A stretch of DNA of 64,000 bases from an uncultured Chloroflexia bacterium (GTDB lineage: Bacteria > Chloroflexota > Limnocylindria > Limnocylindrales > CSP1-4): the NCBI GenBank assembly GCA_963699965.1, contig CAVOVX010000006.1:159315-223314 (forward strand). The letters run 5' to 3'. A program made the translations under genes and the position numbers. Positions 9,701 to 48,986 of this stretch are shown one piece after another. Positions within the stretch are counted from its first letter, which is position 1. Each line of letters begins with the position of its first letter. The notes under the pieces are model-generated. The model was not told the DNA's origin. It ran no database searches and saw only the letters and a program-made list of their open reading frames with translations.

Positions 9701-10440
9701 TGGGTCGCGTCGCCGACGAGCACCGAGCCAGCCTGGGCGGCCGACTGGAGACGGGACGCGGCGTTGACGAGGTCGCCGGCGACCATCGCCTGGCCGGCAT
9801 TCCCGACGGTAACCGCCGCCTCGCCGGTCAGGATCCCGACCCGCAGGGCCGGTGGCCCGTCGCGGCCCGGGAGCTGCGATACGGCGTCAACGAGCTCGAG
9901 GCCGGCCCGGACCGCCTGCTCGGCGTCGTCCTCGCGGGCGACCGGTGCGCCCCAGACCGCCATGACCGCGTCCCCGATGAACTTCTCGACGGTGCCGCCG
10001 TACCGCCCGATCACCTCGCGGGAGTGCTCGAAGTAGGCATCGAGGAAGGCTCTCGTGTCCTCCGGGTCGCGCGTCTCCGAGGCCGAGGTGAACCCGACGA
10101 GGTCGGCGAAGAGCACGCTCACCAGCCGCAGCTCGGGTGATGCCGCGGCGCCGGCCGTCGATAGCTGGCTCCCGGGCGCTGAGCCGGGAGGCTCGGCGGT
10201 GCCTTCGCCCGGGCCCGGGCCGGGAACGCCGGCGGTCACGGGTACGCCGGCGGCGCCCGCGCTCGTCGGGGTGCCGCATTCCGGGCAGAACCGGGCGCCG
10301 GCCGGGAGGGTCGCGCCGCATTCCGGGCAGGGCGCATCGAGCCGAGCGCCGCATTCCGGGCAGAACCGCTGGCCTGGCTGAACCTCGCTCCCGCAGCTGT
10401 GGCAGCGCATGTGCCCTCTCGGATCGTCGAGTGAGGCCAC
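6743..10440 (-). pseudogene. Double zinc-ribbon - class III cyclase domain - STAND/AAA ATPase - TPR-like repeat protein, two frameshifts near 7870 and 7948
   Basis: The N-terminus is CHSCGSEV..CPECG..CPECG..CPECG. The cyclase motifs are VSVLFADLVGFT, KFIGDAVMAVWG and VGILTGEA. The Walker A motif is VGPAGIGKSRL. The helical-repeat tail continues through LTPILAEIESRG / ADPQADPVIAAVASQLSRANMLNGEH / (M)GSIARAIELADRAIGISERLGE across three frames (ORFs 7615..10440, 7218..7886, 6743..7879). Confidence 0.85.
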
Positions 10441-38243: not shown

Positions 38244-39231
38244 ATGCGTGCCTCCCGGCTGGTGTCGCTGCTGCTGCTCCTCCAGACCCGCGGCCAGCTG
38301 ACGGCCGGCGAGCTCGCCGACGAGCTCGAGGTCTCGGTTCGGACCGTCCATCGGGACGTCGAGGCGCTGAGCGAGGCCGGTGTGCCGATCTACGCCGAGC
38401 GTGGGCCCCACGGTGGGATCCGCCTCGTCGACGGCTACCGGACGCGGCTGACCGGCATGACGCCCGACGAGGCGGAGGCCCTGTTCCTGTCCGGGCTGCC
38501 CGGGCCGGCCGCCGAGCTCGGGCTCGGGACGGTCGTGACCGCCGCGCGGCTCAAGGTCCTGGCGGCGCTGCCGCCCGAGCTGCGGACGCGTGCCTCCCGC
38601 CTGGTCGAGCGGTTCCATCTCGATGCGAGCGGCTGGTTCCAGGCCGGCGAGGCCGTGCCCCACCTCGGCGTCCTGTCCGAGGCGGTCTGGGAGACGCAGC
38701 GCGTCGAGATCGACTACGAACGCGGCGATCGGACGGTCGTCCGAACGATCTCCCCGCTCGGGCTCGTCCTGAAGGCCGGCGTGTGGTACGTCGTCGCGCT
38801 GGCCGACGACTCGCCCGCGGACGTACCGGGTCGGCCGGGTCACGGGAGCGCGGCCGCTCGTCGAGCGGTTCGAGCGGCCGGAGGGGTTCGACCTGGCGGC
38901 GTTCTGGGCCGAGTCGAGCGCTGCCTACGAGCGTGACGCACCCAGGATCGAGGTCACCGTCCGGGTTCCGGAAGACCGGATCTGGTGGCTCCGGCGGGCC
39001 GTCGGAGGGGCAGCGGTGGAAGCGGCCGTCAGGCTGCCCGACGACGACCCCGAGGGTTGGCTGCGGCTCCGGCTTCGGCTCGACTGGCCGGAGGAGGTGC
39101 CGGTCCAGCTCCTGTCGGCCGGGCCCGATGTCGAGGTCCTCGAACCGCCCGAGGTCCGCCAGCTGATGATCGAGGTCAGCCGGGCGGTCGCCGCCCGTTA
39201 CGAGCCGCCGGGCAGGGCCACGCCCGACTAG
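38244..39231 (+). pseudogene. YafY-family transcriptional regulator (HTH - WYL - WCX), frameshifted near 38816
   Basis: The HTH is LTAGELADELEVSVRTVHRDVEAL. The WYL region is GVWYVVALADDSP, then a shift, then RTYRVGRVTGARPLVERFERPEGFDLAAFW. The C-terminal part is in ORF 39016..39231. Confidence 0.85.
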
Positions 39232-39547: not shown

Positions 39548-40093
39548 TCAGCCGCGGACGCGCTCCGCGATCGCCCGGGCGGCCCGGCCAAGCCGTTCCG
39601 GCGAGTCGGCCGCATCGACGTCGACCACGAAGTCGGCAAGACGCTCGAGCGTCGGCCCGCGGAGCTCCGTCTGGGTTCGGAACATCGTCTCGGGATCCGA
39701 GCCCAACAGGGGTCGATGCGTCCCGCGCTCGAACCGCCGGACGAGCGTCGCCACCGATGCCCGGAGCAGGACGACGAGCACGTCGGGTTCCTCGAGTGCG
39801 GCCACCGAGCGCGGGTTGTCGACGACGCTCGCAGCGGCGGTGATCACACTTCGATCGGGTGACCGGAGCCCGGCTCGCAGGTGGGCAGCTTCGAGCTGGT
39901 GGAGCCGCGTCGTCCCGTGGCTGGCGCTGATCTCGCGCGCCGTCGCCCCGATCGTCGTCGCGAGCGCATCGTCACTGTCGTCGAACGGCCAGCCAAGGCG
40001 GGTCGCCAACGCCCGGCCGACGGTGGTCTTGCCCGAGCCCATCAGCCCCATCACGACGACGTGCCGGATCGGCGATTGCGATCGCACGTCCAC
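39548..40093 (-). CDS. Shikimate kinase-like P-loop kinase
   Basis: The Walker A motif is [16 protein letters not shown], and FDDSD is a substrate-binding-like motif. The protein is about 180 aa from the GTG at 40093 or 40087. Confidence 0.6.
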
Positions 40094-40107
40094 GATCGTA
40101 CGCCTCG

Positions 40108-40131
40108 CGATACGGTTATCACGATACGGTT
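40108..40131. promoter_or_regulatory. Direct repeat CGATACGGTT-ATCA-CGATACGGTT in a divergent spacer
   Basis: Two perfect 10-mers at 40108-40117 and 40122-40131, between the kinase-like gene (-) and the ypfJ-like gene (+). Confidence 0.3.
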
Positions 40132-40220
40132 GTGAGAAGACCGGTCGGCCGACCACCGCCATCGAAGCGGCCGTCGGGCGGAACCTGACCCGGGGTACCC
40201 TCGGCGGAGGAGGGCAGTCG

Positions 40221-41108
40221 ATGACGTTCAAACCCGGAGCCTCACTCGACCCATCCCAGGTCGAGGACGTTCGGGGCAGCCGGGTCGGAGGTCGCGGGGT
40301 CGCGCTGGGCGGCGGCGGTGGCGCGATTGGCCTGATCCTCGTCATCGCCTACGTCCTGCTCGGCGGCTCCCCGAGCGATCTCGGCGCGTTGTCGGGGCAG
40401 GTCATCGGCGACGAGGGCGGCGTCGGCCCGGCCGGCACGACGCTCTACACGGAGTGCCAGACCGGCGCCGACGCGAACGCCCGCGAGGACTGCCGGATCC
40501 TCGGCTACATCAACAGCATCCAGGCCTACTGGACCACCGACTTCAGCCAGACCGGCCACCGCTACGTACCGGCCCCGACCCGCTTCTTCACCGATCAGAT
40601 CTCGACCGGCTGCGGGTTCGCCAGCGCGGCCTCCGGCCCGTTCTACTGCCCGCGGGACGCGAGGGTCTACATCGATCTCGGCTTCTTCAACGACCTGCGG
40701 ACGCGTTTCGGAGCCAAGGGCGGCCCGTTGGCCGAGGCGTACGTCCTCGCCCACGAGTACGGACATCACGTCCAGGACCTGGCCGGCTCGCTGGCCGGCG
40801 GGTCGGGCGGGACCGGCGAGACGAGCCGGTCGGTCCGGACCGAGCTCCAGGCCGACTGCTTCGCGGGGGTCTGGGCAAGTCATGCCGCCGAGACGGGCTA
40901 CCTCGAGCCGGTCACCGAGAGCCAGGTCGCGGATGCCCTCGATGCCGCCGCGGCGGTGGGCGACGATCGAATCCAGGAGAAGACTCAAGGCAGCGTCGAC
41001 CCGGACTCGTGGACTCACGGCTCGGCCACCCAGCGCCAGAAGTGGTTCCTGACCGGCTACCGGACCGGCGATCCGGACGACTGCGACACGTTCAGCGGAA
41101 CGCCCTGA
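40221..41108 (+). CDS. Neutral zinc metallopeptidase, YpfJ family
   Basis: A GGAGGAGGG Shine-Dalgarno precedes the start. The protein has an N-terminal TM segment, the motifs [16 protein letters not shown] and HExxH in [17 protein letters not shown], and a C-terminal [13 protein letters not shown]. Confidence 0.85.
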
Positions 41109-41155
41109 CCGACCGGGTCCGGAATTCCCCGAACCGGCTCGGCTACGCTCTCCGC

Positions 41156-41965
41156 ATGGCGACGGTCGTCGACGCCCCCGCGCTGGCCCTGCGGACGGTC
41201 CGCGCGACTCGCTACGTCACGCCCCTCCGCGAAGGCGGCTCGCTCCCCGGCCTGCTCGAGGCGGACGATGACGGGCTGTACGTCGTCAAGTTCCACGCCG
41301 CGGGCCAGGGACCCAAGGCGCTCATCGCCGAGCTCGTGGCTGGCGAGGTCGGTCGGGCGATTGGACTGACCGTTCCCGAGATCGTCCTCGTCGAGCTCGA
41401 TGCGGCCCTCGGCAAGGCCGAGCCCGACCCGGAGATCCAGGACCTGCTCGTCCGGAGTGTGGGCCTCGACATCGGGATCGACTTCCTGCCCGGTGCGCTG
41501 CCGTTCGATCCGGCGGCCGGGAGGCGGCCGGGCGCCGAGGCACCCGAGCCCAGCCTGGCCGCCGACATCGTCTGGTTCGACGCGTTCATCACGAACGTCG
41601 ACCGAACCGCCAGGAACGTCAACCTCCTCGTCTGGCACCGACGGCTGTGGCTCATCGATCACGGAGCGGCGCTGTACATCCATCACACGTGGCGCGACCC
41701 GGCCGCCCATGCCGTCCGGCCGTTCGAGCGGATCGTCGATCACGTCCTCCTGCCGTACGCCGGCTCGATCGTCGACGCCGACGACCGGCTCGCGCCGCGG
41801 GTCACCACCGGTCTCCTCGAATCGGTCGTCGCTGCGATCCCGGACGTCTGGCTGGGCGACGGGGCCGCCAACCAGCGACGGGCCTACGTCGACTACCTCA
41901 CCCGCCGCCTGGCGGCGCCCCGCGCGTTCGTCGAGGAGGCGGAGCGTGCCCGTGTCGCGCGCTAG
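41156..41965 (+). CDS. HipA-like serine/threonine kinase-fold protein (partner of DUF3037)
   Basis: 270 aa. The catalytic-loop-like motif is FITNVDRTARNVNLLV and the Mg-binding-like motif is LIDHGAAL. The N-terminal part is GGSLPGLLEADDDGLYVVKF. Family assignment is from memory. Confidence 0.6.
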   Translation: MATVVDAPALALRTVRATRYVTPLREGGSLPGLLEADDDGLYVVKFHAAGQGPKALIAELVAGEVGRAIGLTVPEIVLVELDAALGKAEPDPEIQDLLVRSVGLDIGIDFLPGALPFDPAAGRRPGAEAPEPSLAADIVWFDAFITNVDRTARNVNLLVWHRRLWLIDHGAALYIHHTWRDPAAHAVRPFERIVDHVLLPYAGSIVDADDRLAPRVTTGLLESVVAAIPDVWLGDGAANQRRAYVDYLTRRLAAPRAFVEEAERARVAR

Positions 41966-42344
41966 CCCGTTCGAATACGCGATCGTCCGGGTCGTCCCGC
42001 GGGTCGAGCGGGGCGAGATGTTCAACGCCGGGATCGTCCTCCACTCGCGGCCGCGGCGGTTCCTCGAGGCCCGGGTGGAGCTCGATCGGGCCGTCCTGGC
42101 GTCGCTCGCCCCCGGCTGTGATCCGACCGAGGTCCTCGACCACCTCGAGGCGATCCCGCGGATCGCGGCCGGCGACCCGGCGGCCGGCCCGATCGCCCGG
42201 CTCAGTCGGCCGGAGCGCTTCCATTGGCTGGTGGCGCCGAGCAGCACGATCGTCCAGCCGTCGGCCGTGCACACCGGGCTGACCGACGATCCGTTGGCGA
42301 CCCTGGATCACCTCTTCGCCACGCTCGTCCGGGGCCGGAGCTGA
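41946..42344 (+). CDS. DUF3037 domain protein
   Basis: The hallmark N-terminus is FEYAIVRVVPRVERGEMFNAGIVLH. A GTG start at 41946 or 41952 overlaps the stop of the kinase-like gene (41963-41965). Confidence 0.75.
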   Translation: MPVSRASPFEYAIVRVVPRVERGEMFNAGIVLHSRPRRFLEARVELDRAVLASLAPGCDPTEVLDHLEAIPRIAAGDPAAGPIARLSRPERFHWLVAPSSTIVQPSAVHTGLTDDPLATLDHLFATLVRGRS

Positions 42345-42360
42345 CGCCGGGCCCCGAAGG

Positions 42361-46264: not shown

Positions 46265-47533
46265 TTGACCTTCGACCATCTCGGCCTGTCGGCCGACATC
46301 CTTCGTGCCGTTGCGGACGAGGGCTACACCGAACCAACCCCGATCCAGGACAAGGCCGTCCCGTTCGTCCTCGCCGGCCGCGACGTGCTGGCCGCCGCCC
46401 AGACCGGGACCGGCAAGACGGCTGCCTTTACCTGGCCGATCCTCGAGCGGCTGAAGGACCAGGCGAACTCGAGCTTCTCGCCCGCGCGTCACCCGGTCCG
46501 CGCCCTGATGATCACGCCGACCCGCGAACTGGCGATGCAGATCGCCGACAGCGTGGCGGCCTACGGCCGGCACGTCCCGCTGCGCAGCGCGGTCGTCTAC
46601 GGCGGCGTTCCGATCGAGCCACAGATCAAGGAGCTGCGGGCCGGCGTCGAGATCCTCGTCGCCACCCCTGGCCGCCTGATGGATCACGTCGGGCAGCGCA
46701 CGGTCAACCTGTCGCAGGTCGAGATCCTGGTCCTCGACGAGGCGGATCGGATGCTCGACATGGGGTTCATCCCGGACATCCGCAAGATCGTCGCCCTCCT
46801 GCCGGAGCGACGCCAGAACCTGCTCTTCAGCGCGACGTTCTCGGACGAGATCCGGCGCCTGTCCAAGGAGTTCCTGCACGACCCGGCGACCGTCGAGGTG
46901 GCCGCCCGGAACACCGCCGCTGAGGGCGTCGAGCAGGTCCTCTACCCGGTCGACCGCGACCGCAAGGAGGATCTGCTCATCCACCTCATCCGGCGCGACA
47001 AGATGGAGCAGGTCCTCGTGTTCACCCGGACCAAGCTCGCCGCCAGCCGGCTCGCCTCGTACCTCGATCGGCGCGGGGTCAACGCCGTCGCGATCCACTC
47101 GGATCGCAGCCAGCCAGAGCGCACCCGGGCCCTCGAGGACTTCAAGCGCGGCGAGGTGACCTGCCTCGTGGCGACGGACGTGGCGTCGCGCGGGCTGGAC
47201 ATCGAGGAGCTGCCGTACGTGGTGAACTTCGAGCTTCCGTTCGAGGCGCTCGACTATCTCCACCGGATCGGGCGGACCGGCCGGGCCGGATCGAAGGGGA
47301 TCGCGATCTCGCTCGTGTGCATGGACGAGGTCGAGCTGCTGCGTGCCGTCCAGCGGCTGCTCAAGAAGGCGATCCCGTTCCGGGTCGTCGAGGGGTTCGA
47401 GCCGGACAAGACGATCCCGTCACGACCGATCCGCGGGTTCGGCCGTGACGGTGGATCTGGCCCCGACGGGCGGACCCACCACGCCCATCACAAGCCGATC
47501 CGGACCAGGCCCGCGGGCCGCCGGGCGAGCTAA
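46265..47533 (+). CDS. rhlE: DEAD-box ATP-dependent RNA helicase (RhlE-like)
   Basis: Q motif region GYTEPTPIQ, AQTGTGKT, PTRELA, VLDEADRMLDMGF, SAT and HRIGRTGRAG. The start is a TTG at 46265 with GGAG 5 nt upstream. The C-terminal tail is basic. Confidence 0.9.
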   Translation: MTFDHLGLSADILRAVADEGYTEPTPIQDKAVPFVLAGRDVLAAAQTGTGKTAAFTWPILERLKDQANSSFSPARHPVRALMITPTRELAMQIADSVAAYGRHVPLRSAVVYGGVPIEPQIKELRAGVEILVATPGRLMDHVGQRTVNLSQVEILVLDEADRMLDMGFIPDIRKIVALLPERRQNLLFSATFSDEIRRLSKEFLHDPATVEVAARNTAAEGVEQVLYPVDRDRKEDLLIHLIRRDKMEQVLVFTRTKLAASRLASYLDRRGVNAVAIHSDRSQPERTRALEDFKRGEVTCLVATDVASRGLDIEELPYVVNFELPFEALDYLHRIGRTGRAGSKGIAISLVCMDEVELLRAVQRLLKKAIPFRVVEGFEPDKTIPSRPIRGFGRDGGSGPDGRTHHAHHKPIRTRPAGRRAS

Positions 47534-47566
47534 GGCAGTCGGCTAAACCCTGCGCTGGCCGCGAAG

Positions 47567-48986
47567 CTAGGGCGCCGCGGCCGTCGAGGTCGGCGCCGGG
47601 CCCGAAGGCGACGGCGAGGCATCGGCGAGCGGCTTCGGCAGGGCGATCGACACGAGCTTGGCGGTCAGCGGGCGGAGGTCGACCCCGTTCTGATTGGTCA
47701 GGACGGCGATGGCCAGCCCGGACTTGGGCAGGTAGCGCAGCTCGCCGCGAGCTCCGATGAACCGGCCGCTGTGACCGTACGCCCGCCGACCGTCGACGAC
47801 GGTCACCTGGACGCCGAGTCCGTACGGCACGTACGGACGGTAGGCGGCGGTCTGCTTCGTGTCGCCGACGGCCAGGCTGAGCGTCTCCGGGCGCAGGACC
47901 TTGCCGCCGTAGAGGGCCCTGGCCCAGGCCGCCAGGTCCGACGAGGTCGCGGCGACGTCGCCCGCCGACCCGGCCGCCGTCACGACCGAGGTGAACGGCA
48001 CGATCGCCCCGCGCGCATCGGCGAGGTCGATCGGCTTGGCCGACGGCCCCGCCCGGTTGTAGTAGTAGCCGTGCGCGAGCGGGCCACGTGGCTGCTCGGC
48101 GCCCTGGATGTAGGCGTGCTCGAGGCGGAGTGGATCGACCAGGCGATCCCGGACGAGCTCGGCGAAGGGCGCGCCGCCGACCTGCTCGGCCACGAGCCCG
48201 AGCAGCAGGTAGTTCGTGTTCGAGTAGTGCCACGATCGGCCGGGCGTGCCGACTGCCTTGCCGACGTAGGCCAGGGCCCGATCGGCCGTCCAGGTGGCGC
48301 CACGATCGGCCATCGAGGGCCTTGTCGACCCCCTGGCCGAAGAAGAAGTCGGCCAGCCCGCTCGTGTGGTCGAGCAGCATCCGGACGGTGACGGCGGTCG
48401 GGATCGGCCGGGGCGGCTTCCCAAGGCGCACGTTCGGCAGGATCGTGGCGACCTTCGTGTCGAGGCCGAGCTTGCCGTCGTCGACCAGACCGAGGATCAG
48501 CGCCGCGGTGAACGTCTTCGACATGCTCGCGATCGCAAAGGTCGTGTCGGCGGTGACCGCCCGACCCGCCTTGACGTCGGCGTAGCCGGTCGTGCCGGTC
48601 CAGCTCCGGCCGTCCGGCCAGCTGATCGAGACGCTCGACCCGGGCAGCCGGTTCACCCGCGCGAAGCGGTCCAGGCTCCGCTGGAGTCGGGCGGCAACGT
48701 CAGGGCTGATCTCGGTGCCGGCCGGCAGGCCGGGGGTCGGCGTCGGCGTCGGCGTGGGGCCGGGAGTCGAGGAGGGCGTCGGTTGCCCAGGGGTCGGGGT
48801 CGGTCCCGATCCGCCGAGGTCGCCGTTCCCTGCCGTGGCGGCCGCCACGCCCGACGCCGGGACGGTCGCGGTCGGGCCGGTCGAGCCCGCCGGGGAGCCT
48901 GATCCCGGGACGCCGCTCACGACGAACAGCCCGGCGGCCACGACCGCGGCAAGGAGGAGCGGTCCGACCAGATTCCGACGGGACAT
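47567..48986 (-). pseudogene. Serine hydrolase of the beta-lactamase/D-Ala-D-Ala carboxypeptidase (class C-like) family, secreted; frameshifted near 48314
   Basis: A signal/TM segment and a Pro/Thr linker come first. The SxxK motif is in AIASMSKTFTAA, followed by LLDHTSGL. After a shift at VDKAL the frame reads MADRGATWTADRALAYV...YSNTNYLLLG...GHSGRFIG (ORF 47567..48424). Confidence 0.8.

Follow-up and report, generated by a model that had tools for sequence, protein, structure and literature searches.

A short-form HipA_2 kinase–DUF3037 gene pair in a Chloroflexota genome, a relative of known anti-phage kinase systems

Two overlapping genes on the forward strand of a 64,000-nucleotide (nt) stretch of DNA from an uncultured Chloroflexia bacterium (contig CAVOVX010000006.1, hereafter the window, meaning the whole stretch analysed) encode a HipA-like protein kinase and a small DUF3037 protein, and the question raised by this locus is what such a pair does and whether it represents a new system. 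An earlier note, made from the letters of the window without database searches, had proposed it as an uncharacterised system and held that neither family had an assigned function. The latter statement is outdated, as seen from the PADLOC entry PDC-M66, the pair of Retron-Sda1 (PMC12548924), the system DS-6 or HipAD (PMC13092281) and the HipA/HipD genes of Escherichia phage PhiR5_1. The pair type is already known: it is a defence candidate under the name PDC-M66, and for its long-form relatives an anti-phage action through a kinase toxin and its neutraliser has been validated. The analogy with toxin–antitoxin and defence modules drawn in the note is apt. The idea of an uncharacterised system does not hold: the locus is a compact, chromosomally inherited new member of a known family, whose long forms have been tested, and it has the short form, in which the partner consists of the DUF3037 domain only.

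Both open reading frames (ORFs) lie where the note had put them (Table 1). As read from the sequence, the kinase frame opens with the ATG at 41156, closes with the TAG at 41963-41965 and encodes 269 amino acids (aa), and the DUF3037 frame extends from a GTG at 41946 to the TGA at 42342-42344, with a product of 132 aa. A second GTG, at 41952, is also a possible start for the latter gene, and the overlap with the kinase gene would then be 14 instead of 20 nt, the same range from which translational coupling had been proposed. The longer overlap is favoured because the Shine-Dalgarno motif GAGGAGG (41933-41939) ends 6 nt before the GTG at 41946. Since translation of DUF3037 would begin within the last 20 nt of the kinase gene, preceded there by a GGAGG, both proteins should be made together. 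The combination of GAGGAGG, 6-nt spacer and GTG or ATG was found again in nearly all of 24 related loci, 17 of which, across families, have the very same 20-nt overlap and the others, with one exception, an overlap of 11-23 nt; this junction architecture is kept from Chloroflexota to Bacteroides. The stretch at window positions 41920-41965 is dual-coded, so that the codons for the C-terminal kinase peptide FVEEAERAR also give the GGAGG and the start codon of DUF3037, and such dual coding may explain the strong conservation of this tail. A scan of the locus for promoters and terminators found nothing, and was uninformative at this GC content.

That the two families are frequent neighbours had been stated in the note, and it was borne out in three samples of genomes. 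The genome of the window carries a single copy of each family, and among 61 related genomes both occur in the same 20, adjacent, co-oriented and with the kinase upstream in 20 out of 20. Within a sample of 301 genomes of the phylum, DUF3037 is present in 65 (22%), preceded directly by the kinase in about 60 of these 65, and the copies without an upstream kinase correspond to contig ends or to decayed copies. A collection of species-level genomes yielded at least 597 loci with DUF3037 relatives, of which the best 80, picked for an intact DUF3037, were analysed: an intact kinase was found directly upstream in 74 and a frameshifted one in 5, although these frameshifts are not used as evidence given this choice of loci and the many metagenome-assembled genomes (MAGs) with suspected indel errors among them. 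Short-form pairs are also found in Bacteroides, Parabacteroides, Streptomyces, Nonomuraea and Chondrinema, with kinase identities of 45-54%, and a long-form pair exists in the same phylum as well (genome G211, with a partner of 269 aa). Altogether, the kinase and DUF3037 are obligate, translationally coupled neighbours.

The description of the upstream protein as a HipA-like kinase was confirmed by profile searches, where HipA_2 (PF20613) was the sole Pfam match at an expectation value (E) of 1 or less (65.4 bits against a cut-off of 27, E 6e-18) and the PADLOC model PDC-M66A gave 81 bits (E 1.8e-23); NCBIfam holds no model for either the kinase or the DUF3037 protein. The motifs NVDRTARNVNLL and IDHGAAL pointed out in the note are present at residues 147-158 and 167-173. 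Among 43 homologues, the residues K45, D149, N154 and D168 are invariant, and the same holds for R150 and N156 of the catalytic loop and for I167, H169 and G170 of the IDHGAAL motif. Because of the invariance of the first four, all the predicted catalytic residues can be regarded as intact and the kinase looks active. An AlphaFold2 model of the protein (predicted local distance difference test, pLDDT, 85) has the CtkA kinase of Helicobacter pylori as its closest solved structure (template modelling score, TM, 0.57-0.60; E 2.5e-5), followed by VPS34, PI4KII-alpha and Fam20. Escherichia coli HipA is absent from the top 50 structural matches of the model. As a sequence-profile search of the Protein Data Bank (PDB) with the kinase returned zero matches, HipA and HipT included, the link to CtkA and to the PI3/4-kinases is one of fold comparison only.

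The small partner is indeed a DUF3037 protein, which covers the full Pfam profile PF11236 (positions 1-118; 133 bits against a cut-off of 22.6, E 6e-39). Judged from its sequence, the window copy is a minimal short form of the pair, its 132-aa partner lacking the C-terminal domain of about 150 aa that is found in HipD. Relatives of this protein make up at least 7,969 clusters at 90% identity, overwhelmingly of about 130 aa within the length range searched, whereas a search without length limit gave 1,593 clusters at 50% identity, most of the top matches measuring 125-140 aa. The few long matches that were looked at are fusions to unrelated domains (PNPOx, Fic and NMO), plus one kinase-DUF3037 fusion. 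A set of residues is conserved in the short-form domain (R15, P18, R22, E24, N27, G29, R91, F92, W94, S100, Q104, H109 and G111), and its AlphaFold2 model is a confident alpha/beta domain (pLDDT 96) that found no match among solved structures (best E 0.27, TM 0.2); a sequence-profile search of the PDB gave noise only. In a library of viral structures the model matches three unnamed proteins of 192-287 aa (TM 0.56-0.60), which are presumably HipD-like.

Functional data exist for several relatives of the pair. A HipA-like/DUF3037 pair was reported in 2025 in the Retron-Sda1 operon, together with a strong association between DUF3037 and HipA and the PADLOC label PDC-M66 (PMC12548924, PLoS Biology). 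For defence against phage Bas51 the retron parts are dispensable and the kinase is essential, its deletion abolishing protection, whereas deletion of DUF3037 is toxic (PMC12548924). In this line, the DefensePredictor paper (PMC13092281, Science 2026) presents the E. coli system DS-6 as validated, with a HipA-family kinase (DS-6A) and a partner that joins DUF3037 to DUF1829 (DS-6B). The same paper states that defence was lost when a predicted catalytic residue of DS-6A was mutated, that AlphaFold3 predicts a complex between A and B with a weaker contact between B and DNA, and that the authors equate DS-6 with the 'HipAD' of Brenes & Laub 2025 (PMC13092281).

A direct comparison was made with the pair of phage PhiR5_1 (PV340545.1), located with tblastn of phage records in the cI-kil interval, where the genes are annotated as a HipA toxin (249 aa) and a HipD antitoxin (275 aa). 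The window kinase shares 27% identity with this HipA (E 1e-15), and its Lys, DRT...N and IDH motifs have their counterparts in the alignment: Lys45 falls on the Lys of YVLK, the NVDRTARNVNLL loop on NADRT...NVNIL and IDHGAAL on LIDHN. Its score of 81 bits with PDC-M66A compares with 53 bits for the validated phage protein. The window DUF3037 aligns with residues 2-125 of HipD (20% identity, E 9e-5), a protein made of a DUF3037 domain and about 150 more residues, which covers positions 6-271 of PDC-M66B from end to end.

By sequence, then, the pair is a member of the HipA_2-DUF3037 family that comprises PDC-M66, DS-6 and HipAD. With DS-6 and HipAD it has in common a HipA_2 kinase of about 250-270 aa carrying the same Lys, DRT...N and IDH motifs, and an arrangement in which the kinase gene comes first and is overlapped at its end by the gene of a partner that starts with a DUF3037 domain. 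It differs in that HipD reaches 275 aa with its additional C-terminal region (DUF1829 in DS-6B, with the predicted DNA contact), which the window partner lacks; a C-terminal domain of the DUF1829 type, bringing the partner to a total of about 275-281 aa, is a trait of the long subtype and, according to Pfam, does not define the family. Since this domain is missing here, any DNA binding or autoregulation ascribed to it cannot apply to the window pair. Moreover, the short-form motif ERFxWLxAPRST..Q..H is not retained in HipD, so that only an N-terminal hairpin motif (RxxP....E..N.G) is common to both forms of DUF3037, and HipAD belongs to a lambdoid prophage, in whose cI-kil moron slot it is found, whereas the window pair occupies a syntenic chromosomal site. 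As for PDC-M66 itself, the two window proteins match its two models and are adjacent and co-oriented, but the DUF3037 protein spans only positions 4-129 of the 281-position B model (E 5.6e-8), and PDC-M66 is a candidate set by genomic context, not by mechanism. The Retron-Sda1 pair has the same two domains and works as a stand-alone defence that requires the kinase and in which loss of DUF3037 is toxic; on the other hand, the C-terminal region of its DUF3037 protein resembles DNA-binding proteins of type III-A1 retrons, and it lies beside a retron reverse transcriptase and non-coding RNA, neither of which is found in the window. The pair of Bacteroides finegoldii (WP_004305885/WP_004305884; 260 and 127 aa, 23-nt overlap) is 48% and 37% identical to the window proteins and also lies in a non-defence context, among glycoside-hydrolase genes, but in a different phylum. 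This pair and the short-form pairs of Streptomyces and Nonomuraea, likewise from outside the phylum of the window, carry the NCBI names 'HipA family kinase' and 'DUF3037 domain-containing protein'.

The surroundings and history of the pair bear on its role. Its neighbours are genes for a DUF72 protein, a helix-turn-helix (HTH)-WYL-WCX regulator, a shikimate-kinase-like protein, a Zn-peptidase (PF04228, ypfJ-like, 47 nt upstream of the kinase gene), an F420H2-dependent reductase (convergent, 16 nt downstream of the DUF3037 gene), YciI, HhH-GPD, a metallo-beta-lactamase (MBL) hydrolase and a DEAD-box helicase. PADLOC gave only generic WYL and helicase matches among these neighbours and no specific defence gene, and the GC content is flat across the locus (0.69-0.73); metabolic and housekeeping neighbours, generic matches and flat GC rule out a defence island or a mobile element. 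A three-gene module with the Zn-peptidase or the regulator was also discarded, as this link occurs in the genus and some sister genera only and is missing in other Chloroflexota families and in Bacteroides, and it is treated as local synteny. The gene backbone around the pair is syntenic across the genus, where the kinase is 73-83% identical and DUF3037 76-87%, against 77-80% for the Zn-peptidase (ranges taken without G017, whose genome is nearly identical, and without the decayed G014 copy). In a tree of the concatenated pair from 82 loci, phylum labels need 3 changes versus about 23 in shuffles, and all 29 Actinomycetota copies, of Thermoleophilia type, form one clade nested among Limnocylindrales-type Chloroflexota copies, a topology that suggests one ancient transfer across phyla, between two lineages of soil bacteria. 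The Actinomycetota copies (loci L085-L145) come from Solirubrobacterales, Gaiellaceae and other Thermoleophilia-type MAGs.

Cases of loss complete this history. In genome G001 (L044, positions 9751-9850, equivalent to window 41109-42360) the pair is absent and the Zn-peptidase and reductase genes are about 100 bp apart, but right after the Zn-peptidase stop the spacer still codes for the last 20 or so DUF3037 codons (GLTGDPEATLEHLFRTLVQGRR and the stop), so that one deletion of about 1.1 kb removed the kinase gene along with most of the DUF3037 gene. This scar shows that the module is ancestral and was lost as a unit. Both genes are frameshifted and unusually diverged (62% and 71%) in G014, and both are broken in G300. 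In other genomes the two genes have met different fates: the kinase of G266 (L048, 2110-2941) is a 141-aa in-frame remnant without residues ~36-154, the ATP-binding Lys and the catalytic loop included, which still overlaps an intact 142-aa DUF3037 gene, the one that scored best for DUF3037 among the sampled phylum genomes; in G172 almost nothing is left of the kinase beside a retained DUF3037; and in G296 the kinase is split and DUF3037 intact. Intact short-form kinases without DUF3037 were not seen in the genomes examined. In the clear cases of decay, then, the kinase is lost first and DUF3037 stays, a pattern that fits a toxin and its neutraliser. Tree, genus synteny and losses together describe mainly vertical descent, with one old inter-phylum transfer and sporadic loss, of an old chromosomal resident of this lineage of soil Chloroflexota.

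The reading that we favour, with a probability of about 0.6, is that the locus encodes a kinase toxin and, in DUF3037, the protein that restrains it. By extension from the tested long-form relatives, DUF3037 would bind the kinase and keep it inactive until phage infection or another stress breaks this hold; the freed kinase would then phosphorylate an essential target, perhaps a translation component by analogy with HipA-family toxins, and the ensuing growth arrest of the cell would abort the phage infection. That the pair defends this particular host against phage is a more tentative proposal, to which we give somewhat less than an even chance.

A number of observations weigh against a toxin and its neutraliser, and several of them would suit a long-resident regulatory kinase switch, active in housekeeping or stress signalling of soil Chloroflexota and Thermoleophilia, which would set growth rate or dormancy independently of phages and in which DUF3037 would be a structured regulatory subunit, a small-molecule sensor, or a substrate or activator of the kinase. 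No experimental test of any short-form pair was found in the literature searched, the window partner lacks the C-terminal half of HipD, and the asymmetry of decay amounts to three clear cases only. The pair lies outside any prophage, plasmid or defence island, is single-copy and syntenic in the genus, diverges at about the rate of its neighbours and has a tree that follows the phyla; single copy, conserved synteny, flat GC, the want of mobile or defence neighbours, a mostly vertical inheritance and kinase identities of 45-54% over three phyla all speak for the regulatory switch. The partner raises the same doubt. Its mean identity is 66% versus 64% for the kinase, being the higher of the two in 52 of 74 loci, and it carries near-invariant polar residues (R15, R22, E24, N27, R91, S100, Q104 and H109) on a confident fold without a solved homologue; a partner at least as conserved as the kinase, with a modelled fold that is rigid and novel, is unusual for a labile antitoxin. 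Still, a regulatory switch is rather unlikely. The pair is dispensable: only 22% of the phylum genomes have it, G001 has lost it by deletion, and the copies of G014 and G300 have decayed. The kinase is the first to be lost while DUF3037 survives, and long-form homologues become toxic once the partner is missing and act against phages, the pair type being listed by PADLOC as the phage-defence candidate PDC-M66 (PMC12548924). Because of the confident fold without solved homologue, the near-invariant polar set and a conservation equal to or above that of the kinase, a bolder proposal can be formulated, namely that short-form DUF3037 is no passive antitoxin but a ligand-sensing or catalytic subunit, or the obligate substrate or activator of the kinase, the pair being an ancient, vertically inherited growth/dormancy switch of soil Chloroflexota and Thermoleophilia and the source of the mobile, anti-phage long-form HipAD. 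We regard this proposal as unlikely.

The pair could also be a selfish addiction module, a toxin–antitoxin without benefit for the host that persists since loss of the partner kills the cell and that has no part in phage defence or physiology. Its toxin–antitoxin-like architecture and coupling, the survival of DUF3037 beyond the kinase in decaying copies and the toxicity of a DUF3037 deletion in a relative are all in line with this explanation, but both proteins have been under strong purifying selection over phylum-scale time, with a catalytic site intact in 43 of 43 homologues, whereas a chromosomal element that serves only itself should decay. The pair is not associated here with plasmids or mobile elements, the relatives do defend against phage, and addiction alone appears quite improbable. 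Membership in the canonical HipBA or HipBST persistence modules is refuted by domain, fold and gene-context tests; the earlier note had spoken of a likeness to HipBA-type toxin–antitoxin modules, while pointing out the lack of an HTH antitoxin. The kinase superfamily is common to these modules, to CtkA (the best solved match) and to the window protein, and homologues of the latter bear the NCBI product name 'HipA family kinase'; the working logic of a kinase toxin with a protein neutraliser is probably common to them as well. Nevertheless, no match to HipA_C (PF07804), HipA_N or Couple_hipA was obtained even at E <= 1. Canonical HipA has about 440 aa, and the window kinase, with its 269, is some 170 residues shorter. 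Neither HipA nor HipT came up in the PDB profile search, and HipA fell outside the top 50 structural matches. The gene upstream encodes the Zn-peptidase (PF04228) and not an HTH protein of the HipB type, as the note had rightly observed, the nearest HTH belonging to the separate HTH-WYL-WCX regulator about 2 kb upstream. The order of genes is kinase first, with the partner downstream rather than upstream, and there is no HipS-like fold: DUF3037 as an antitoxin resembling HipS or the N-subdomain of HipA was ruled out by the confident model without PDB match and the noise of the profile search.

Table 1. Positions in the window of the gene pair and of the elements described in the text.
Feature	Position	Strand	Basis
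Kinase gene (HipA_2-type, CtkA/HipA-like Ser/Thr protein kinase; presumed toxin/effector)	41156..41965	+	ORF, Pfam, PADLOC, AlphaFold2
Lys45 codon (VVKF), predicted ATP-binding lysine	41288..41290	+	Invariance in 43 homologues; role inferred from kinase fold
Catalytic loop NVDRTARNVNLL (Asp149, Asn154), residues 147-158	41594..41629	+	Invariance, alignment with phage HipA
IDHGAAL, residues 167-173; Asp168 is the predicted Mg-binding aspartate	41654..41674	+	Invariance, alignment with phage HipA
Shine-Dalgarno GAGGAGG for the DUF3037 gene, inside the kinase C-terminal EEAERAR codons	41933..41939	+	Read from sequence
Overlap of kinase 3' end and DUF3037 5' end	41946..41965	+	20 nt, translational coupling
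DUF3037 gene (single domain, presumed neutraliser/partner of the kinase)	41946..42344	+	Pfam, PADLOC, AlphaFold2

Other features were observed around the pair. In five congeneric loci (L030, L031, L036, L038 and L039), though not in the window, a cassette of 2-3 kb lies between the DUF3037 and F420H2-reductase genes and codes for a zinc-ribbon protein (MPHDVISxCPVCS...), a DUF4097-like protein of about 350 aa and a small SHOCT-like protein, all named by eye only; a similar cassette occupies the site in G010, where the pair is missing. The cassette was considered as a defence system and rejected. Upstream, the HTH_11-WYL-WCX (YafY-like) regulator at window 38244-39231 (+) is split over two frames into an HTH plus WYL part (38244..38936) and a WCX part (39016..39231), which are offset by 772 nt (not divisible by 3), against 753 nt, in frame, in the congener G012; the split gene is either a pseudogene or the result of an assembly indel. 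A beta-lactamase-family serine hydrolase at 47361-48986 (-) seems to extend over two overlapping frames (ORFs of 541 and 285 aa), in what looks like another frame break, which suggests assembly indel errors. The shikimate-kinase-like ORF at 39548-40345 (-) has its P-loop preceded by an N-terminal extension of about 95 aa that is rich in Pro, Ser and Arg, and its true start is probably further downstream.

For the window alone, the locus is an additional instance of a known pair and not a discovery. Its interest lies in the form of the partner, since the tests made so far concern the long form, which is the rarer one. The pair type is very common: the DUF3037 relatives add up to 7,969 or more clusters at 90% identity and occur in no fewer than 597 species genomes. 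Should the short form behave alike, a large block of 'hypothetical' genes of soil bacteria could be annotated as kinase-toxin modules, and DUF3037 without further domains would suffice to restrain the kinase. Should it behave differently, the pair would point to a second role of this kinase family, outside immunity, and to a small protein fold that has no solved structure.

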